Below are positions 876 to 10,715 of a stretch of DNA of 10,715 nt, in pieces. The notes under the pieces were generated by a model. The model saw only the letters and a list, made by a program, of their open reading frames with translations, did not search any database and was not told the DNA's origin. The translations under genes were made by a program, and so were the position numbers. The stretch comes from a virus. Taxonomy: Duplodnaviria; Heunggongvirae; Uroviricota; Caudoviricetes. Numbering within the stretch: position 1 is the stretch's first letter; each line of letters begins with the position of its first letter. Where the stretch lies: positions 1-10,715 of the IMG/VR virus record IMGVR_UViG_2636415418_000006. One strand, written 5' to 3'.

Positions 876-952
876 GCGCCCTTAGCTCAGTTGGATAGAG
901 CAACGACCTTCTAAGTCGTGGGCCGCAGGTTCGAATCCTGCAGGGCGCGCCA
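876..952 (+). tRNA. argU: tRNA-Arg (anticodon UCU, 910-912), 77 nt with encoded CCA; attachment site of the prophage
   Basis: The sequence folds as a cloverleaf: acceptor stem GCGCCCT/AGGGCGC, D-arm, anticodon stem CGAC/GTCG with loop CTTCTAA, T-arm GCAGG-TTCGAAT-CCTGC, discriminator G and CCA at 950-952. It matches my recollection of E. coli argU, the known DLP12 integration site. Confidence 0.92.
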
Positions 953-1397: not shown

Positions 1398-1934
1398 TCA
1401 TCGCCATTGCTCCCCAAATACAAAACCAATTTCAGCCAGTGCCTCGTCCATTTTTTCGATGAACTCCGGCACCATCTCGTCAAAACTCGCCATGTACTTT
1501 TCATTCCGCTCAATCACGACATAATGCAGGCCTTCACGCTTCATGCGCGGGTCATAGTTGGCAAAGTACCAGGCATCTTTTCGCGTCACCCACATGCTGT
1601 ACTGCACCTGGGCCATGTAAGCCGATTTTATTGCCTCGAAACCACCGAGCCGGAATTTCATGAAATCCCGGGAGGTAAACGGGCATTTCAGTTCAAGGCC
1701 GTTGCCGTCACTGCATAAACCATCGGGAGAGCAGGCAGTGCGCATATTTTCGTCGCGATAGATGATCGGGGATTCAGTAACATTCACGCCGGAAGTGAAT
1801 TCAAACAGGGTTCTGGCGTCGTTCTCGTACTGTTTTCCCCAGGCCAGCGCCTTAGCATTAACTTCCGGAGCCACACCGGTGCAAACCTCAGCCAGCAGGG
1901 TGTGGAAGCCACGGTGCAATCTGGAATAACCCAC
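1398..1934 (-). pseudogene. exo: Lambda-type exonuclease (Exo/YqaJ family), 5'-truncated: the C-terminal ~170 aa are conserved and the native stop is retained
   Basis: From [37 protein letters not shown] to the terminal GFVFGEQWR the translation is near-identical to lambda Exo as I recall it. The first ~55 lambda codons are missing, and the ORF-track N-terminus MGYSRLHRG is non-homologous junction sequence. Homology begins near position 1907. Confidence 0.8.
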
Positions 1935-4135: not shown

Positions 4136-5233
4136 TTAGAACTGGTAAACCAGACCTACAGCAACGATGTCATCAGTGCTTACACCGAGTGCTTTAGTGA
4201 AGTCATTTTTGTCAAGCAGGTTGATTTTGTAATCAACGAAAGTAGACATATTTTTGTTGAAGTAATAGGTTGCACCTACATCAACATATTTGACTAAGTC
4301 CTGATCGCCCCATACTCCAAGATCCTTACCTTTAGATTGCAGGTAAGCAACGGACGGACGCAGACCGAAATCGAACTGATATTGTGCAACAGCTTCGAAG
4401 TTTTGAGCTTTATTAGCAACGAAGTGATCAGCAAATACAGTCATATTCTGGGTTTCAGAATAGGTAGTGGCCAGGTAAATGTTGTTAGCGTCATATTTCA
4501 GACCTGCGGCCCAAACTTCTGCATTTTTACCGGAAGCAAATACTTCAGGAAGAACTTTCCCTGCATTAACTTGAGTGTCGGTACGATCAGATTTCGCATA
4601 AGTTGCACCGATACCGAATCCTTCGTATTCATAGGTAGCAGAGAAACCGAAGCCATCACCGTTACCTTCGGTGTAGTTATCGAAATCGCTACGATCGTTT
4701 TTGCCTTGGTACTGAGCAGCAAAGTTCAGACCATCAACCAGACCAAAGAAGTCGTTGTTACGATAAGTTGCAACACCAGTGGTGCGACCAGTCATGAACA
4801 CATCTGTTTGGGTCCAGGTATCGCCACCGAATTCTGGCAGAACGTCAGTCCACGCACCGATGTCGTATGCTACACCGTAGTTACGGCCGTAATCGATGGA
4901 GCCGTAGTCACCGAATTTCAGGCCAGCGAAGGCAAGACGGGTTTTATCTTTGGAGGAACCTTGAGATTCAGCGCGGTTGCCTTTGAATTCATATTCCCAC
5001 TGACCGAAACCAGTCAGTTGATCGTTGATTTGGGTTTCACCTTTGAAGCCAAGACGGGCATAAGTAGTATCACCATCATCTGCATCATTAGAGGAGAAGT
5101 AGTGCTTAGCATTAACTTTCCCGTACAGATCCAGCTTGTTACTGTCTTTATTATAAATTTCAGCTGCCTGAGCAGACATCGCCATCAGTACTGATGCAGC
5201 TACAGCAGAAATTGCCACTGTTAATTTTTTCAT
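4136..5233 (-). CDS. nmpC: General outer-membrane porin of the OmpC/OmpF/NmpC family (365 aa, intact, with signal peptide)
   Basis: The signal peptide [23 protein letters not shown] is followed by AEIYNKD, and the protein ends in the typical porin C-terminal F. It is full length, unlike the IS5-disrupted K-12 nmpC, and sits antisense between Q and the lysis genes exactly as in DLP12. Confidence 0.85.
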
Positions 5234-5806: not shown

Positions 5807-5905
5807 ATGAAATCCATGGATAAGTTAACAACGGGTGTCGCCTATGGCACCTCAGCAGGTAGTGCCGGGTATCTGCATCATCGTCTGCCTGTCATGGGCT
5901 GTTAA
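5807..5905 (+). pseudogene. essD: Class I holin (lambda S / EssD-like), N-terminal 22 codons only, then frameshifted into Rz sequence
   Basis: [22 protein letters not shown] matches the EssD/lambda S N-terminus as I recall it. After that the frame reads [10 protein letters not shown] and stops, because the DNA from about 5873 is Rz coding sequence in another frame. Confidence 0.7.
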
Positions 5906-6498: not shown

Positions 6499-6987
6499 AT
6501 GAACCAATTAGAAGAAAAGCTTCAAAGAATGATTTCCTTATACAAGGAAGATAACTGCCAAAAAGTTCCTGAAAACATCGCAGAGTTAATGGAATTGGCA
6601 AGTGAATTTTCTGGCATGCTTAAGTCGTCAGGTGTTCGGTCAGCGTTCTTTGTTGAAATGCTGATGCACGGCGGACTTATGGCAACAATGAGACGTGTAA
6701 TGGAAGACCAGAGAAAAGAACCTCCTCAGGTATACGTTTTGTCATCGAAGAAAACTGGGCTAACCAAAATTGGGTATTCATCCAACATTCCACAACGCAT
6801 CAAATCGCTTGGCAACTCTGGACCAGACTGCTTGAAGCTTGAGTGCCTGATCCCTGGTGGAAGAGAAACTGAAAACATGCTTCATCGCAAATTTGCCGCA
6901 AAGAGAAAGCACGGTGAATGGTTCGCCCTGTCCAAGGATGACATTGAGGGATTGAAATCTGTAGCGATTACTTCTGATGGCTATTAA
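6499..6987 (+). CDS. T5orf172 (GIY-YIG-like) domain protein of 162 aa: helical N-terminal region of unknown function plus C-terminal T5orf172 domain; moron in the slot occupied by bor in lambda
   Basis: The C-terminal half (VYVLSSKKTGLTKIGYSSNIPQRIKSLGNSGPDCLKLECLIPGGRETENMLHRKFAAKRKHGEWFALS) follows the T5orf172/MUG113 pattern (hydrophobic-Y-V-L ... KIGyT ... R ... E ... LH ... GEWF). An AAGG Shine-Dalgarno precedes ATG 6499. The DNA is unrelated to lambda at this position. Confidence 0.7.
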   Translation: MNQLEEKLQRMISLYKEDNCQKVPENIAELMELASEFSGMLKSSGVRSAFFVEMLMHGGLMATMRRVMEDQRKEPPQVYVLSSKKTGLTKIGYSSNIPQRIKSLGNSGPDCLKLECLIPGGRETENMLHRKFAAKRKHGEWFALSKDDIEGLKSVAITSDGY

Positions 6988-7026
6988 TGCTTGTTTAGAG
7001 CAATTTTCATAACAACTCTTCATTAC

Positions 7027-7056
7027 AAAGCCCATCTACTGGTGGGCTTGATAATG
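7027..7056 (+). repeat. Hairpin AAGCCCA-(8 nt)-TGGGCTT followed by GATAATG; copy 1 of a repeated stem-loop motif
   Basis: Read directly from the sequence, 40 nt downstream of the T5orf172 stop. No T-run follows the stem. Confidence 0.4.
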
Positions 7057-7301
7057 AAACCGTGATTTACATCCCCACAATCCGGGTATGTAAAAGATAG
7101 TTCAGGCGAGAACGGATTTAACTAAATCTGTGCGCCACCAGTTAACGGCAGTACCACGAAACAACCCAAGCCAGTAAGTGGGGAAATAACACCGGCAGCC
7201 ACTGAAAGATGAACCTCCTGCCTTATGGCAAAAAAGATTCTTTGTGGTGGCGGACTGATGGAAAGACATCCTAATTTCAGCCAAACATTGAAGGAGTTGT
7301 T

Positions 7302-7373
7302 ATGTCAGCAGAAGGTTTCAATAACCCATCAAAATTCCGGGATGAGTGGGATAGCAGCGTAAAGAGTAAGTGA
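7302..7373 (+). CDS. Candidate small ORF (23 aa, MSAEGFNNPSKFRDEWDSSVKSK) with a strong Shine-Dalgarno
   Basis: A consensus AAGGAG at 7291-7296 lies 5 nt upstream of the ATG. There is no homology evidence, and the ORF is bracketed by the two repeated hairpins. Confidence 0.2.
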   Translation: MSAEGFNNPSKFRDEWDSSVKSK

Positions 7374-7383
7374 TGCCATCACA

Positions 7384-7417
7384 AAAGCCATTCCCTACAG
7401 AGTGGCTTTGATAATGG
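7384..7417 (+). repeat. Hairpin AAAGCCA-(12 nt)-TGGCTTT followed by GATAATGG; copy 2 of the repeated stem-loop motif
   Basis: It has the same architecture and the same 3' flank (GGCTT(T)GATAATG) as the hairpin at 7027-7056. Confidence 0.4.
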
Positions 7418-7665
7418 CTTATACCCTACACGGGATAACTTAACTGATATCCCTTTTAAAGGATAAAGGTATTCAAGCCTGACACATCATGCGCTGTATC
7501 GTCGCCGTATTCCAGTATTAACAGAGACCGTAGCCCGACGGGGAACTCCTTCTGCGCGAGTGTGCGGGAATAATCAAAAACGATGCACACCGGGGTTACC
7601 GGGTACACATATTTCATCATGCCAGCGAGTCCGGTTCTGGCACGGAAGAAACCGGACGTTATGAT

Positions 7666-8367: not shown

Positions 8368-8544
8368 GAGGTTGTCCCGTATTCAGTGTCGCTGATTTGT
8401 ATTGTCTGAAGTTGTTTTTACGTTAAGTTGATGCAGATCAATTAATATGATACCTGCGTCATAATTGATTATTTGACGTGGTTTGATGGCGTAGATGCAC
8501 GTTGTGACATGCAGATGATAATTATTATCATTTTGCGGGTCCTT

Positions 8545-8755
8545 TCCGGCGATCCGACAGGTTACGGGGCGGCGACCTCGCGGGTTTTTGCTATTTATGA
8601 AAATTTTCCGGTTTAAGGTGTTTCCGTTCTTCTTCGTCGTAACTTAATGTTTTTATTTAAAATACCCCCTGAAAAGAAAGGAAACGACAGGTGCTGAAAA
8701 CGAGCTTTTGGGCCTTTGTCGTTTCCTTTCTCTGTTTTTGGCCGTGGAATGAACA
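8545..8755 (+). other. Complete lambda-type cos site: cosQ side, cosN (12-nt cohesive end GGGCGGCGACCT at 8567-8578) and cosB up to the Nu1 start
   Basis: GATCCGACAGGTTACG|GGGCGGCGACCTCGCGGGTTTT...GAAAGGAAACGACAGGTGCTGAAA... is almost base-for-base the joined right and left ends of phage lambda as I recall them. Confidence 0.85.
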
Positions 8756-8944
8756 ATGGAAGTCAACAAAAAGCAGCTGGCTGACATTTTCGGTGCGAGT
8801 ATCCGTACCATTCAGAACTGGCAGGAACAGGGAATGCCCGTTCTGCGAGGCGGTGGCAAGGGTAATGAGGTGCTTTATGACTCTGCCGCCGTCATAAAAT
8901 GGTATGCCGAAATCTGGCGGATCCGGCGCGTGAGTTCACCATGA
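8756..8944 (+). pseudogene. nohD: Terminase small subunit Nu1, N-terminal 52 codons only (DNA-binding region), then junction
   Basis: MEVNKKQLADIFGASIRTIQNWQEQGMPVLRGGGKGNEVLYDSAAVIKWYAE is identical to lambda Nu1 residues 1-52. Homology stops at 8911, and the frame then reads IWRIRRVSSP and a stop. Confidence 0.85.
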
Positions 8945-9009
8945 TTCAGTCAGCACCGCTGATGCTGCTGGCTGACCCTGATGAGTTCGTGTCCGTACAA
9001 CTGGCGTAA
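8912..9009 (+). pseudogene. Major capsid protein E, last ~30 codons only
   Basis: A different frame ending at TAA 9007-9009 encodes ...REFTMIQSAPLMLLADPDEFVSVQLA, which matches the lambda gpE C-terminus as I recall it. It is joined directly to Nu1 codon 52, which implies deletion of Nu1 3', A, W, B, C, Nu3, D and most of E. Confidence 0.6.
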
Positions 9010-9050: not shown

Positions 9051-9449
9051 ATGACGAAAGATGAACTGATTGCCCGTCTCCGCTCGCTGGGTGAACAACT
9101 GAACCGTGATGTCAGCCTGACGGGGACGAAAGAAGAACTGGCGCTCCGTGTGGCAGAGCTGGAAGAGGAGCTTGATGACACGGATGAAACTGCCGGTCAG
9201 GACACCCCTCTCAGCCGGGAAAATGTGCTGACCGGACATGAAAATGAGGTGGGATCAGCGCAGCCGGATACCGTGATTCTGGATACGTCTGAACTGGTCA
9301 CGGTCGTGGCACTGGTGAAGCTGCATACTGATGCACTTCACGCCACGCGGGATGAACCTGTGGCATTTGTGCTGCCGGGAACGGCGTTTCGTGTCTCTGC
9401 CGGTGTGGCAGCCGAAATGACAGAGCGCGGCCTGGCCAGAATGCAATAA
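9051..9449 (+). CDS. FI: Lambda DNA-packaging/head-assembly protein FI (132 aa)
   Basis: MTKDELIARLRSLGEQLNRDVSLTGTKEELALRVAELEEELDDTDETAGQ...MTERGLARMQ is near-identical to lambda gpFI as I recall it. A GGAGG Shine-Dalgarno lies at 9041-9045. Confidence 0.88.
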   Translation: MTKDELIARLRSLGEQLNRDVSLTGTKEELALRVAELEEELDDTDETAGQDTPLSRENVLTGHENEVGSAQPDTVILDTSELVTVVALVKLHTDALHATRDEPVAFVLPGTAFRVSAGVAAEMTERGLARMQ

Positions 9450-9460
9450 CGGGAGGCGCT

Positions 9461-9814
9461 GTGGCTGATTTCGATAACCTGTTCGATGCTGCCATTGCCT
9501 GCGCCGATGAAACGATACGCGGGTACATGGGAACGTCAGCCACCATGACATCCGGTGAGCAGTCCGGTGCTGTGATACGTGGTGTTTTTGATGACCCTGA
9601 AAATATCAGCTATGCCGGACAGGGCGTGCGCGTTGAAGGCTCCAGCCCGTCCCTGTTTGTCCGGACTGATGATGTGCGGCAGCTGCGGCGCGGCGACACG
9701 CTGACCATCGGTGAGGAAAACTTCTGGATAGACCGGATTTCGCCGGATGATGGCGGAAGCTGTCATCTCTGGCTTGGGCGGGGCGTACCGCCTGCCGTTA
9801 ACCGTCGCCGCTGA
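9461..9814 (+). CDS. FII: Lambda head-tail joining protein FII (117 aa), GTG start
   Basis: MADFDNLFDAAIACADETIRGYMGTSATMTSGEQSGAVIRGVF...GRGVPPAVNRRR is near-identical to lambda gpFII as I recall it. A GGGAGG Shine-Dalgarno lies at 9451-9456. Confidence 0.88.
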   Translation: MADFDNLFDAAIACADETIRGYMGTSATMTSGEQSGAVIRGVFDDPENISYAGQGVRVEGSSPSLFVRTDDVRQLRRGDTLTIGEENFWIDRISPDDGGSCHLWLGRGVPPAVNRRR

Positions 9815-10715
9815 AAGGGGGATGTATGGCCATAAAAGGTCTTGAGCAGGCCGTTGAAAACCTCAGCCGTATCAGCAGAACGGCGGTGCCCGGTGCCGCC
9901 GCAATGGCCATTATCCTCGGTGGTTTGTTCTCCTTGTCGCAGAGCGCCGTGTCCTCACCGGCTTCCGGGAAATCCACATCTTTTTTGATTTCGCCACGCC
10001 CGCCCACCATGGTGGCAAACTCCATTAATACCGGACCGGCGGGAAACAGAAGCGATGCGCCGGCGCTGACGAGATCCATAAAACCGGCATTGCTTTCCGT
10101 CAGGGTGATAACAGCGTTCCCCCAGGCCTTCGCCAGTGGTACTGCTTTTTCCGCTGCCGATTCAAGCAGGTCAGTGGCAATATCACCCCATGAGGGTTCC
10201 CCCTGTGGGATTTCAGGTATTGCTCCAGGTGGGGGAGGAGGGGGAAGGGTGACGGCGGCCCTTGCAGCGGGCTTTCCGTTAATGTTTACATTTTCAGAAC
10301 CGGTATTGATGGCGCCGTCCGTGTCACAAAAGCTGTTTATCCATGATTCAAGCTGGTTCTGTTTCTCCTCCACATAATCACTCGCCTTATAGCTGGCATA
10401 CATCAGCGCAGGCACCAGAACCAGCGCATAAGGGCCGGTGGCGCAGGCGGCCATAATCAGGCAACCTTCTGCGATGGTCACTATCGCCCCCAGCACGGCC
10501 CCTGCCAGTGCCCCCAGAAAACTTTTATGCTGAATTTCATCGCCCAGCCTGGCGGCAGGTGGGCCGGACTTCTTTGCTGCCAGCATCTGTGCAATGGCTT
10601 TGTCGTTGGCTGCCCGTTTCATCTGGCTGGCGACCATCGCCTGCTGTGACAGCATTCGCATTGCCAGCGTACCGCCTGCGGTCGCTCCCTGTGGCCCGCC
10701 TGGTCCTTCACTCAT
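9798..10715 (-). CDS. Hypothetical membrane protein with a prePAAR-like motif (AARLGDEIQH), a two-helix hydrophobic hairpin, a PAAR-like motif (NVNINGKPAAR) and a poly-proline linker; candidate T6SS-type effector N-terminal module whose 3' end runs into antisense lambda DNA
   Basis: The long minus-strand ORF is GC-rich with E. coli-like codon usage. Residues 51-60 fit AARxxDxxxH, residues about 66-108 are hydrophobic (FLGALAGAVLGAIVTIAEGCLIMAACATGPYALVLVPALMY), and residues about 141-149 are GSENVNINGKPAAR followed by PPPPPP. The last ~40 codons (position 9912 and below) are antisense to lambda Z and FII, so the native C-terminus is missing. The start may be an internal ATG (10584-10586, MLAAKKSGPPAAR...). 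Confidence 0.5.
   Translation of the reverse strand: MSEGPGGPQGATAGGTLAMRMLSQQAMVASQMKRAANDKAIAQMLAAKKSGPPAARLGDEIQHKSFLGALAGAVLGAIVTIAEGCLIMAACATGPYALVLVPALMYASYKASDYVEEKQNQLESWINSFCDTDGAINTGSENVNINGKPAARAAVTLPPPPPPGAIPEIPQGEPSWGDIATDLLESAAEKAVPLAKAWGNAVITLTESNAGFMDLVSAGASLLFPAGPVLMEFATMVGGRGEIKKDVDFPEAGEDTALCDKENKPPRIMAIAAAPGTAVLLIRLRFSTACSRPFMAIHPPFSGDG
9826..9912 (+). pseudogene. Tail protein Z, first 29 codons only
   Basis: MAIKGLEQAVENLSRISRTAVPGAAAMAI matches the lambda gpZ N-terminus, after which the frame diverges into sequence that is antisense to the minus-strand gene. The remaining ~150 aa of the ORF-track entry 9826..10377 are not Z. Confidence 0.75.

Follow-up and report, generated by a model that had tools for sequence, protein, structure and literature searches.

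The locus in E. coli W21

The window (the whole stretch of DNA that was analysed, 10,715 bases) matches a segment of the E. coli W21 chromosome (NZ_CP163122.1) with 100% identity. At the left end, the annotation gives fimZ and a tRNA-Arg, followed by three truncated genes, for an integrase, an exonuclease and a methyltransferase. The next block reads ninE, ninX, rusA, ylcG, quuD, a porin, a truncated essD, a lysis protein and a GIY-YIG protein, and the cos-proximal block reads a DUF1398 (ybcV-like) protein, a YlcI/YnfO protein, a truncated 'DNA-packaging protein', a 30-codon fragment, FI, FII and a truncated tail protein. The right end, on the opposite strand, consists of a truncated rhs gene, then a DcrB-related gene, vgrG and cusS. 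The tRNA-Arg is argU, the sole match in an Rfam scan of the entire window, and fimZ lies upstream of it. This argU and fimZ side is that of the K-12 DLP12 integration site, and the appY/ompT side is deleted in W21. Comparison of the annotations with K-12 also recovered the DLP12 late-region order, rusA-ylcG-quuD-porin-essD...ybcV-ylcI-cos-nohD. Judged by integration site and gene order, the window is the argU/DLP12 locus of W21, and the host prophage is a defective member of the DLP12 family.

Three further observations concern the middle of the window. The nmpC-like porin gene is intact here, whereas IS5 splits the copy in K-12 DLP12. The gene of the GIY-YIG nuclease family occupies the position of bor in lambda and K-12 DLP12. 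The interval of ~680 bp that comes after it carries neither an annotated gene nor an Rfam match.

Elements of the cos site

A full lambda-type cos lies in the cos-proximal block, with lambda bp 1 at window 8567 (Table 1). It comprises cosN, cosQ at the lambda spacing, I2 with its spacing, and cosB in the arrangement R3-I1-R2-R1. The lambda counterpart of cosQ is 48473–48479. The 16-bp cosN follows the definition in PMC9026076, and R3 and its critical bases follow PMC9026076 and PMC4669245; cosQ is a 7-bp element required for termination of packaging, and R1 is an accessory site (PMC4669245). A 231-bp cos segment is 96–100% identical to phages and prophages (best phage, 98.7% over 231 bp), and we judge the match to be one of homology, not chance. 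Scanning for promoters and terminators round cos gave counts close to the shuffle expectation, and one predicted 'terminator' near cos is the cosN palindrome with a run of T.

Table 1 Positions of the features discussed in the text (window coordinates; canonical lambda base numbers where given).
Feature	Window position	Strand	Remarks
argU (tRNA-Arg)	876–949		Rfam
Deletion scar against the sister prophage	1372/1373		
Deletion scar against the sister prophage	1900–1908		
nmpC-like porin gene	4136–5233	-	intact
Deletion scar against the sister prophage	5867–5875		
GIY-YIG nuclease family gene	6499–6987		
Interval after the GIY-YIG gene	6988–7665		
Full lambda-type cos	8537–8731		
cosQ heptamer GGGTCCT	8537–8543	+	30 bp ahead of the top-strand nick; lambda-identical; invariant in 7/7 aligned sequences
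cosN, 16 bp, CGGGGCGGCGACCTCG	8565–8580	+	lambda-identical
Cohesive-end 12-nt GGGCGGCGACCT	8567–8578	+	inside cosN, 2 flanking bp per side
I2 segment, lambda bp 18–50	8584–8616	+	single change, bp 23 C>T (window 8589)
I2 critical bp 30–35, TATGAA	8596–8601	+	unchanged from lambda
cosB R3, lambda bp 50–65	8616–8631	+	single change, bp 53 C>T (window 8619)
I1 region, R3-R2 interval	8632–8674	+	putative IHF site; differs from lambda at bp 73 and bp 102
cosB R2	8675–8690	-	inverted relative to R3 and R1; 16 bp lambda-identical
Place of G138 of NC_001416	8703–8704		extra G absent
cosB R1	8716–8731	+	first base changed, canonical bp 151 C>T (window 8716); other 15 bp lambda-identical
Nu1 ATG	8756	+	
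Truncated Nu1 (TerS) ORF, 62 codons	8756–8944	+	residues 1–52 of the lambda winged helix-turn-helix domain, then IWRIRRVSSP and stop (8942–8944)
Deletion junction Nu1 codon 53 / E codon 311 (scar)	8912–8916		~6.7 kb lost; few bases of uncertain origin
Major capsid gene E, last 30 codons and stop	8917–9009	+	
FI	9051–9449	+	intact; left-over head-completion gene, packaging side of cos
FII	9461–9814	+	intact; left-over head-completion gene, packaging side of cos
Tail gene Z, first ~29 codons	9826–9911	+	ends at the ~33 kb deletion joining Z to mid-rhs
rhs/Z junction	about 9909–9914		
Rhs effector, N-terminal ~268 codons	9798–10715	-	prePAAR and PAAR motifs; fused to Z (~29 codons)

Sister prophage and decay history

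Strain EM18-18-42 carries at argU a nearly complete lambdoid prophage that runs from integrase to tail fibres with nohD and terminase A intact; its damage lies in int (an internal stop), quuD and the portal gene (a frameshift). The window aligns to this sister prophage in five blocks, with 99.7–100% identity left of the Nu1 break and 96.4% right of it. Within the cos-containing block of 3,046 bp the two differ at 4 bases, none in cos and none less than 1 kb from it, and the cos of the window is base for base that of the sister. The allele with T at bp 23, 53 and 151 was thus once in use in a prophage whose terminase was complete. Since the sister has a frameshifted portal and an internal stop in int, it gives no proof that the shared cos allele supports growth.

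Five deletions separate the window from the sister. They run from int to exo (~2.2 kb), from exo to the methyltransferase gene (~8.1 kb), from essD through rrrD (~0.7 kb), from Nu1 codon 53 to E codon 311 (~6.7 kb), and from about codon 29 of Z to the middle of the rhs gene (~33 kb). The last one took the tail genes, appY, ompT, envY, ybcH, nfrAB and the rhs toxin end, so that W21-type strains lost the Rhs toxin end, the small downstream genes and OmpT in one event. The ancestor was, in our reconstruction, a lambdoid prophage of ~45 kb with nohD (Nu1) and terminase A, of which the five deletions left ~9 kb, or ~20%; cos sat between deletions and has had too little time to mutate. With ~9 kb of ~45 kb left, any 200-bp site would have had about one chance in five of surviving regardless of its function. 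The sequence-only reading had described the cos as kept, which implies selection. We read its intactness differently: cos is intact because the decay is recent, as the same allele is found in a near-complete sister with nohD and A. Based on this recency and on the surviving fraction of ~20%, the intact cos is, by our reconstruction, due to recent decay rather than to selection.

Several details of the scars may be recorded here. The flanking alignments overlap by 9 bp at two of the four scars listed in Table 1, which suggests microhomology-mediated deletion. The start of essD is fused to the end of an Rz-like lysis gene. To the right of the Nu1/E junction, window 8916–9913 matches segment 28413–29406 of the EM18-18-42 locus at the 96.4% given above, and the head genes of the window are the more lambda-like. 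From the contrast with the identity on the left, either the W21 lineage took its head-completion genes from another mosaic segment, one closer to lambda, or recombination has since altered the sister. At the far right, the rhs gene of EM18-18-42 has 1,505 codons, with appY, ompT, envY, ybcH, nfrAB and IS elements between it and the prophage. What remains after the ~33 kb deletion is an orphan vgrG-DcrB-rhs' cluster.

As a whole, the account that we consider highly probable is that of a sequence-competent orphan cos in a DLP12-family remnant, left by recent deletions, where a helper phage would bring about dead-end packaging and recombination.

Frequency of orphan cos sites

We surveyed 5,426 complete E. 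coli genomes with 231-bp query segments. The cos segment matched at 8,572 places in 4,549 genomes, 3,982 of them with at least 80% coverage. For the 3' half of Nu1 there were 6,013 places in 4,047 genomes (4,030 at this coverage), and for a mid-gene segment of A 4,707 places in 3,331 genomes (3,322). From the genome counts of cos and A it follows that at least 660 genomes (at ≥80% coverage), and up to ~1,200, have a lambda-type cos without a lambda-type A, a difference to be read with the fact that megablast would miss divergent A genes. K-12 is one such genome, its DLP12 having cos and a full nohD and only ~100 codons of A (truncated aaaD). Orphan lambda-type cos sites in decayed DLP12 are thus common and already described; that of W21 is neither specially preserved nor new.

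The exact junction of Nu1 and E was found in 11 of the 5,426 genomes, each time 100% identical, and on this distribution we regard it as a recent, lineage-restricted event; 11 identical copies have no power to detect selection in either direction. Seven of the 11 have two or three lambda-type cos places, so some members of the lineage probably harbour another lambda-type prophage, a potential helper.

The counts of cos and A give a rough measure of the potential targets of trans-acting terminase in E. coli chromosomes, and such counts bear on phage-prophage recombination and on tests of whether cos phages mobilise flanking DNA. The locus itself adds one further decay allele of DLP12 and is minor as a discovery. 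It is a clean worked example, where a near-complete sister lets every deletion be mapped and where 'intact without its enzyme' can mean 'recently deleted'.

Possible action of a helper terminase

TerS binds R3-I1-R2-R1 and positions TerL for the cosN nick, after which the enzyme remains on the cosB end and moves along the DNA in that direction (PMC4669245). For the window cos, the cosB/Nu1 direction from cosN is rightward. Helper terminase acting in trans cuts the cos of repressed chromosomal prophages, and the DNA between two cos sites is packaged, giving 1–4 virions per cell (PMC4669245). We propose that a superinfecting or co-resident phage of lambda specificity would supply TerS and TerL in trans, and that this helper terminase would bind R3-I1-R2-R1 and nick cosN, leaving a double-strand end that would stimulate recombination with the phage. 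Between infecting lambda and the DLP12 cos region, recombination occurs at high frequency and about half of the junctions (10/19) adjoin cos (PMC3945230). Trans cutting and recombination with phage at the window cos are plausible, being published for the DLP12 family, and we infer them for this allele. The suggestion that the site could recombine with an incoming phage was therefore well placed.

Translocation would run rightward through the remnants of Nu1 and E, FI, FII and the start of Z into rhs' and vgrG, cusRS-CFBA, pheP and the ent/fep cluster. Termination requires cosQ and cosN at the next cos (PMC4669245), and the sequence-only reading had proposed a look for a second cos in the same orientation 38–52 kb downstream. 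There is none in the 64.5 kb downstream, and no cosQ-cosN pair stands about one head-full away. The 16-bp cosN finds its best match there at +45.4 kb, with 3 mismatches and without a cosQ; with ~0.24 matches of 3 mismatches expected by chance per strand in 64.5 kb, it is about at chance level. The W21 chromosome has one lambda-type cos place in total, and no second place in W21 matches any part of the window, so that no co-resident lambda-type module of cos, Nu1, FI and FII is visible. Without a downstream cosQ-cosN the packaging run cannot be terminated. The expected product would be dead-end filled heads with one cohesive end, resembling the doc particles of lambda, and mature transducing particles are not expected, since no second cos lies within the 64.5 kb or elsewhere in the chromosome. 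The proposal of the sequence-only reading, helper cutting followed by rightward packaging of the neighbouring DNA, stands for cutting and the start of packaging, in keeping with the known action in trans (PMC4669245), and fails for productive packaging of the neighbouring genes.

A stronger version holds that the orphan cos is a working launch site from which lambda-type helpers meaningfully mobilise rhs'/vgrG, cus and ent/fep, as a cos-driven counterpart of lateral transduction. Every cos subsite is intact, initiation at a chromosomal cos and translocation along the chromosome are established for helper terminase (PMC4669245), for Fels-1 a step in coverage has been described on the downstream side of the prophage cos (PMC8008629), and the seven junction-bearing genomes with extra cos places may hold a potential helper. 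Against this, the terminating cos is missing both from the 64.5 kb downstream and from the rest of the W21 chromosome, and no co-resident module of lambda type is visible in W21 itself. A cos terminase makes its final cut only at a second cos, and protruding DNA that is left uncut keeps tails from joining (PMC6687093); lateral transduction is moreover stated not to be carried out by cos phages (PMC12829572). We consider meaningful mobilisation from this site very unlikely.

A broader conjecture extends this to the population. Orphan cos sites, present without a lambda-type A gene in 12% or more of the complete E. coli genomes, would during lambdoid phage infection be directional hot spots for terminase-fed recombination, with an occasional transfer of ~48 kb when a single-cos run is matured by nonspecific breakage; as a sub-variant, the Nu1(1–52) fragment would modulate this process or interfere with phage packaging. 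If this were true, vgrG/rhs', cus and ent/fep would pass from strain to strain at a higher rate than other parts of the chromosome. We hold it to be very unlikely, and keep to dead-end packaging with recombination at the break as the preferred outcome at the window cos.

Differences from lambda and probable competence for cutting

Against bp 1–190 of NC_001416 the window has 8 substitutions, at canonical bp 23, 53, 73, 102, 134, 145, 151 and 176, and lacks G138, with no further indel. The extra G of NC_001416, in the R2-R1 interval, is absent likewise from the resequenced lambda PV340536.1, K-12 DLP12 and three phages. As resequenced lambda and every aligned relative lack it, G138 is a peculiarity of NC_001416, on account of which canonical lambda coordinates right of bp 138 run one above the simple window offset. 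Since there is no other indel, the cosN-cosB spacing, which is critical (PMC9026076), is that of resequenced lambda and the same in every aligned relative. All substitutions lie outside cosQ, cosN, I2 bp 30–35, R3 bp 55–63 and R2, which bears out the earlier description of cosN and cosB as essentially lambda-identical. Five of the 8 are common to phage PhiR42_1, and the changes at bp 73 and bp 102 in I1 are common to the deposited phages PhiR42_1, PhiR26_1 and 2H10. The PhiR phages do not stem from the lambdoid-phage paper in Genome Research (2025), and the case for their viability therefore rests solely on their deposition as phage genomes for which a propagation host is named.

Point changes that disable cosN or cosB had been named as what would overturn helper cutting, and the C>T changes at bp 23, 53 and/or 151 might be thought to abolish terminase binding or nicking, leaving a dead relic. 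Bp 53 lies inside R3, in the CGTTTCC core common to lambda R1, R2 and R3, and R3 is the most sensitive R site (PMC9026076). However, T53 is also found in the isolated phage 2H10 and in K-12 DLP12, and lambda recombinants with DLP12 DNA across cos, including those with the DLP12 nu1, were all viable (PMC3945230). T23 was absent from every deposited phage that we aligned, but bp 23 falls in the block of I2 (bp 18–29) that is wholly replaceable without yield loss, whereas bp 30–35 are essential and their replacement is lethal (PMC4856287). T151 is shared with phages PhiR26_1 and 2H10. Positions for which phenotypes are known, namely bp 56, 58 and 59 within the R3 contact segment bp 55–63 (PMC4669245, PMC9026076) and I2 bp 30–35, keep the lambda base. 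A dead site is highly improbable, since every changed base either is tolerated in phages or falls in a segment that can be replaced. The cos of the window is, by contrast, sequence-competent, and a helper terminase could plausibly nick here.

Truncated Nu1 and surviving head genes

Up to and including residue 52, Nu1 is 100% identical to lambda; the break is at codon 53. The earlier statement that Nu1 is cut at codon 52 was right about the truncation and one codon off in its position. The fragment covers positions 1–52 of the 164 of the Pfam Phage_Nu1 profile, and the ORF is an annotated pseudogene. The ~6.7 kb lost at the junction comprised the remainder of Nu1, the genes A, W, B, C/Nu3 and D, and the greater part of E. 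When the Nu1, A, W, C, D and E proteins of the sister were searched with tblastn against 88 kb of W21 round cos, the matches were Nu1 1–52 and E 312–341 only; A, W, C and D were not found, which agrees with the claimed absence of the terminase large subunit. An origin of the junction bases TCTGGCG as filler DNA was considered and rejected: an alternative E allele, that of strain EC5502, accounts for most of them, so at most a few junction bases are of uncertain origin.

The fragment raises the idea of a defence or decoy, in which a putative 62-residue Nu1' product or the chromosomal cos itself interferes with incoming lambda-type packaging, either by Nu1' occupying cosB or by cos titrating terminase or provoking cutting of the chromosome. 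Nu1' approximates the DNA-binding domain of TerS without the parts for oligomerisation and TerL binding. Its residues 1–52 are 100% identical to PDB 7LW0 and 1J9I, the former being the solved structure of a 56-residue N-terminal construct. The ORF retains its native start and upstream region, and the Rpp proteins of PICIs are small proteins related to the TerS DNA-binding domain that are able to redirect packaging. Residues 53–68, which Nu1' lacks, may be needed for dimerisation of this domain. The DNA-binding-domain construct of 1J9I reaches residue 68, and the domain is a tight dimer (PMC4669245). The tail of the ORF consists of 10 out-of-frame residues created by the deletion. The ORF is a pseudogene that occurs in only 11 identical genomes, and the decay process that produced it left four other scars; a defence or decoy role is very improbable, and we return to the decayed remnant with an orphan, sequence-competent cos.

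Comparison with known systems

Gram-negative PICIs share with this locus a chromosomal element without its own terminase, a lambda-like cosN and packaging via a lambda-type helper. They differ in that they excise and replicate, carry a cosB sequence of their own and encode Rpp, which redirects TerS. A reading of the window as a PICI or satellite was rejected: rpp and a replication module are both missing, the integrase is truncated, and cosB is lambda's own, not PICI-specific.

Lateral transduction of the pac type likewise starts in situ at a prophage packaging site and packages the flanking chromosome in one direction. It relies on headful cutting, whereas cos terminases need a second cos (PMC6687093) and are reported not to carry out the process (PMC12829572). 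With no headful nuclease and no second cos, the window cos was also rejected as a lateral-transduction platform.

Closer in mechanism is the passive tandem prophage assay of the Feiss laboratory, where the terminase of a heteroimmune helper cuts a repressed chromosomal cos and then translocates (PMC4669245). This assay works because a second cos sits one genome length downstream; W21 has none.

The lambda doc particles of Sternberg and Weisberg (1975) reportedly arise by single-cos packaging into host DNA and end as dead-end filled heads. They share with the situation proposed here one chromosomal cos, terminase from a lytic programme and one-way packaging into host DNA without a terminating cos. 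That excision-defective lambda prophages give immature particles is credited to the same work in PMC8008629. The prophage in that case supplies its own terminase and replicates in situ. The W21 remnant has neither terminase nor replication module, and all would therefore come from the helper and the substrate would be single-copy.

The nearest relative is DLP12 of K-12. The two share the argU site next to fimZ, the late-region order from rusA to cos and the Nu1 homologue, a lambda-type cos with T53, and the lack of a functional terminase large subunit. In K-12 a full-length nohD and ~100 codons of A are followed by tail-fibre fragments, appY and ompT; in the window Nu1 matches only as far as codon 52 and then runs into the end of E, FI and FII are still present, and the 33-kb deletion leads into rhs. 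The moron content differs as well, with the GIY-YIG gene in the window and bor in K-12 DLP12. Both belong to one family, and the cos region of the K-12 member is known to recombine with infecting lambda (PMC3945230).
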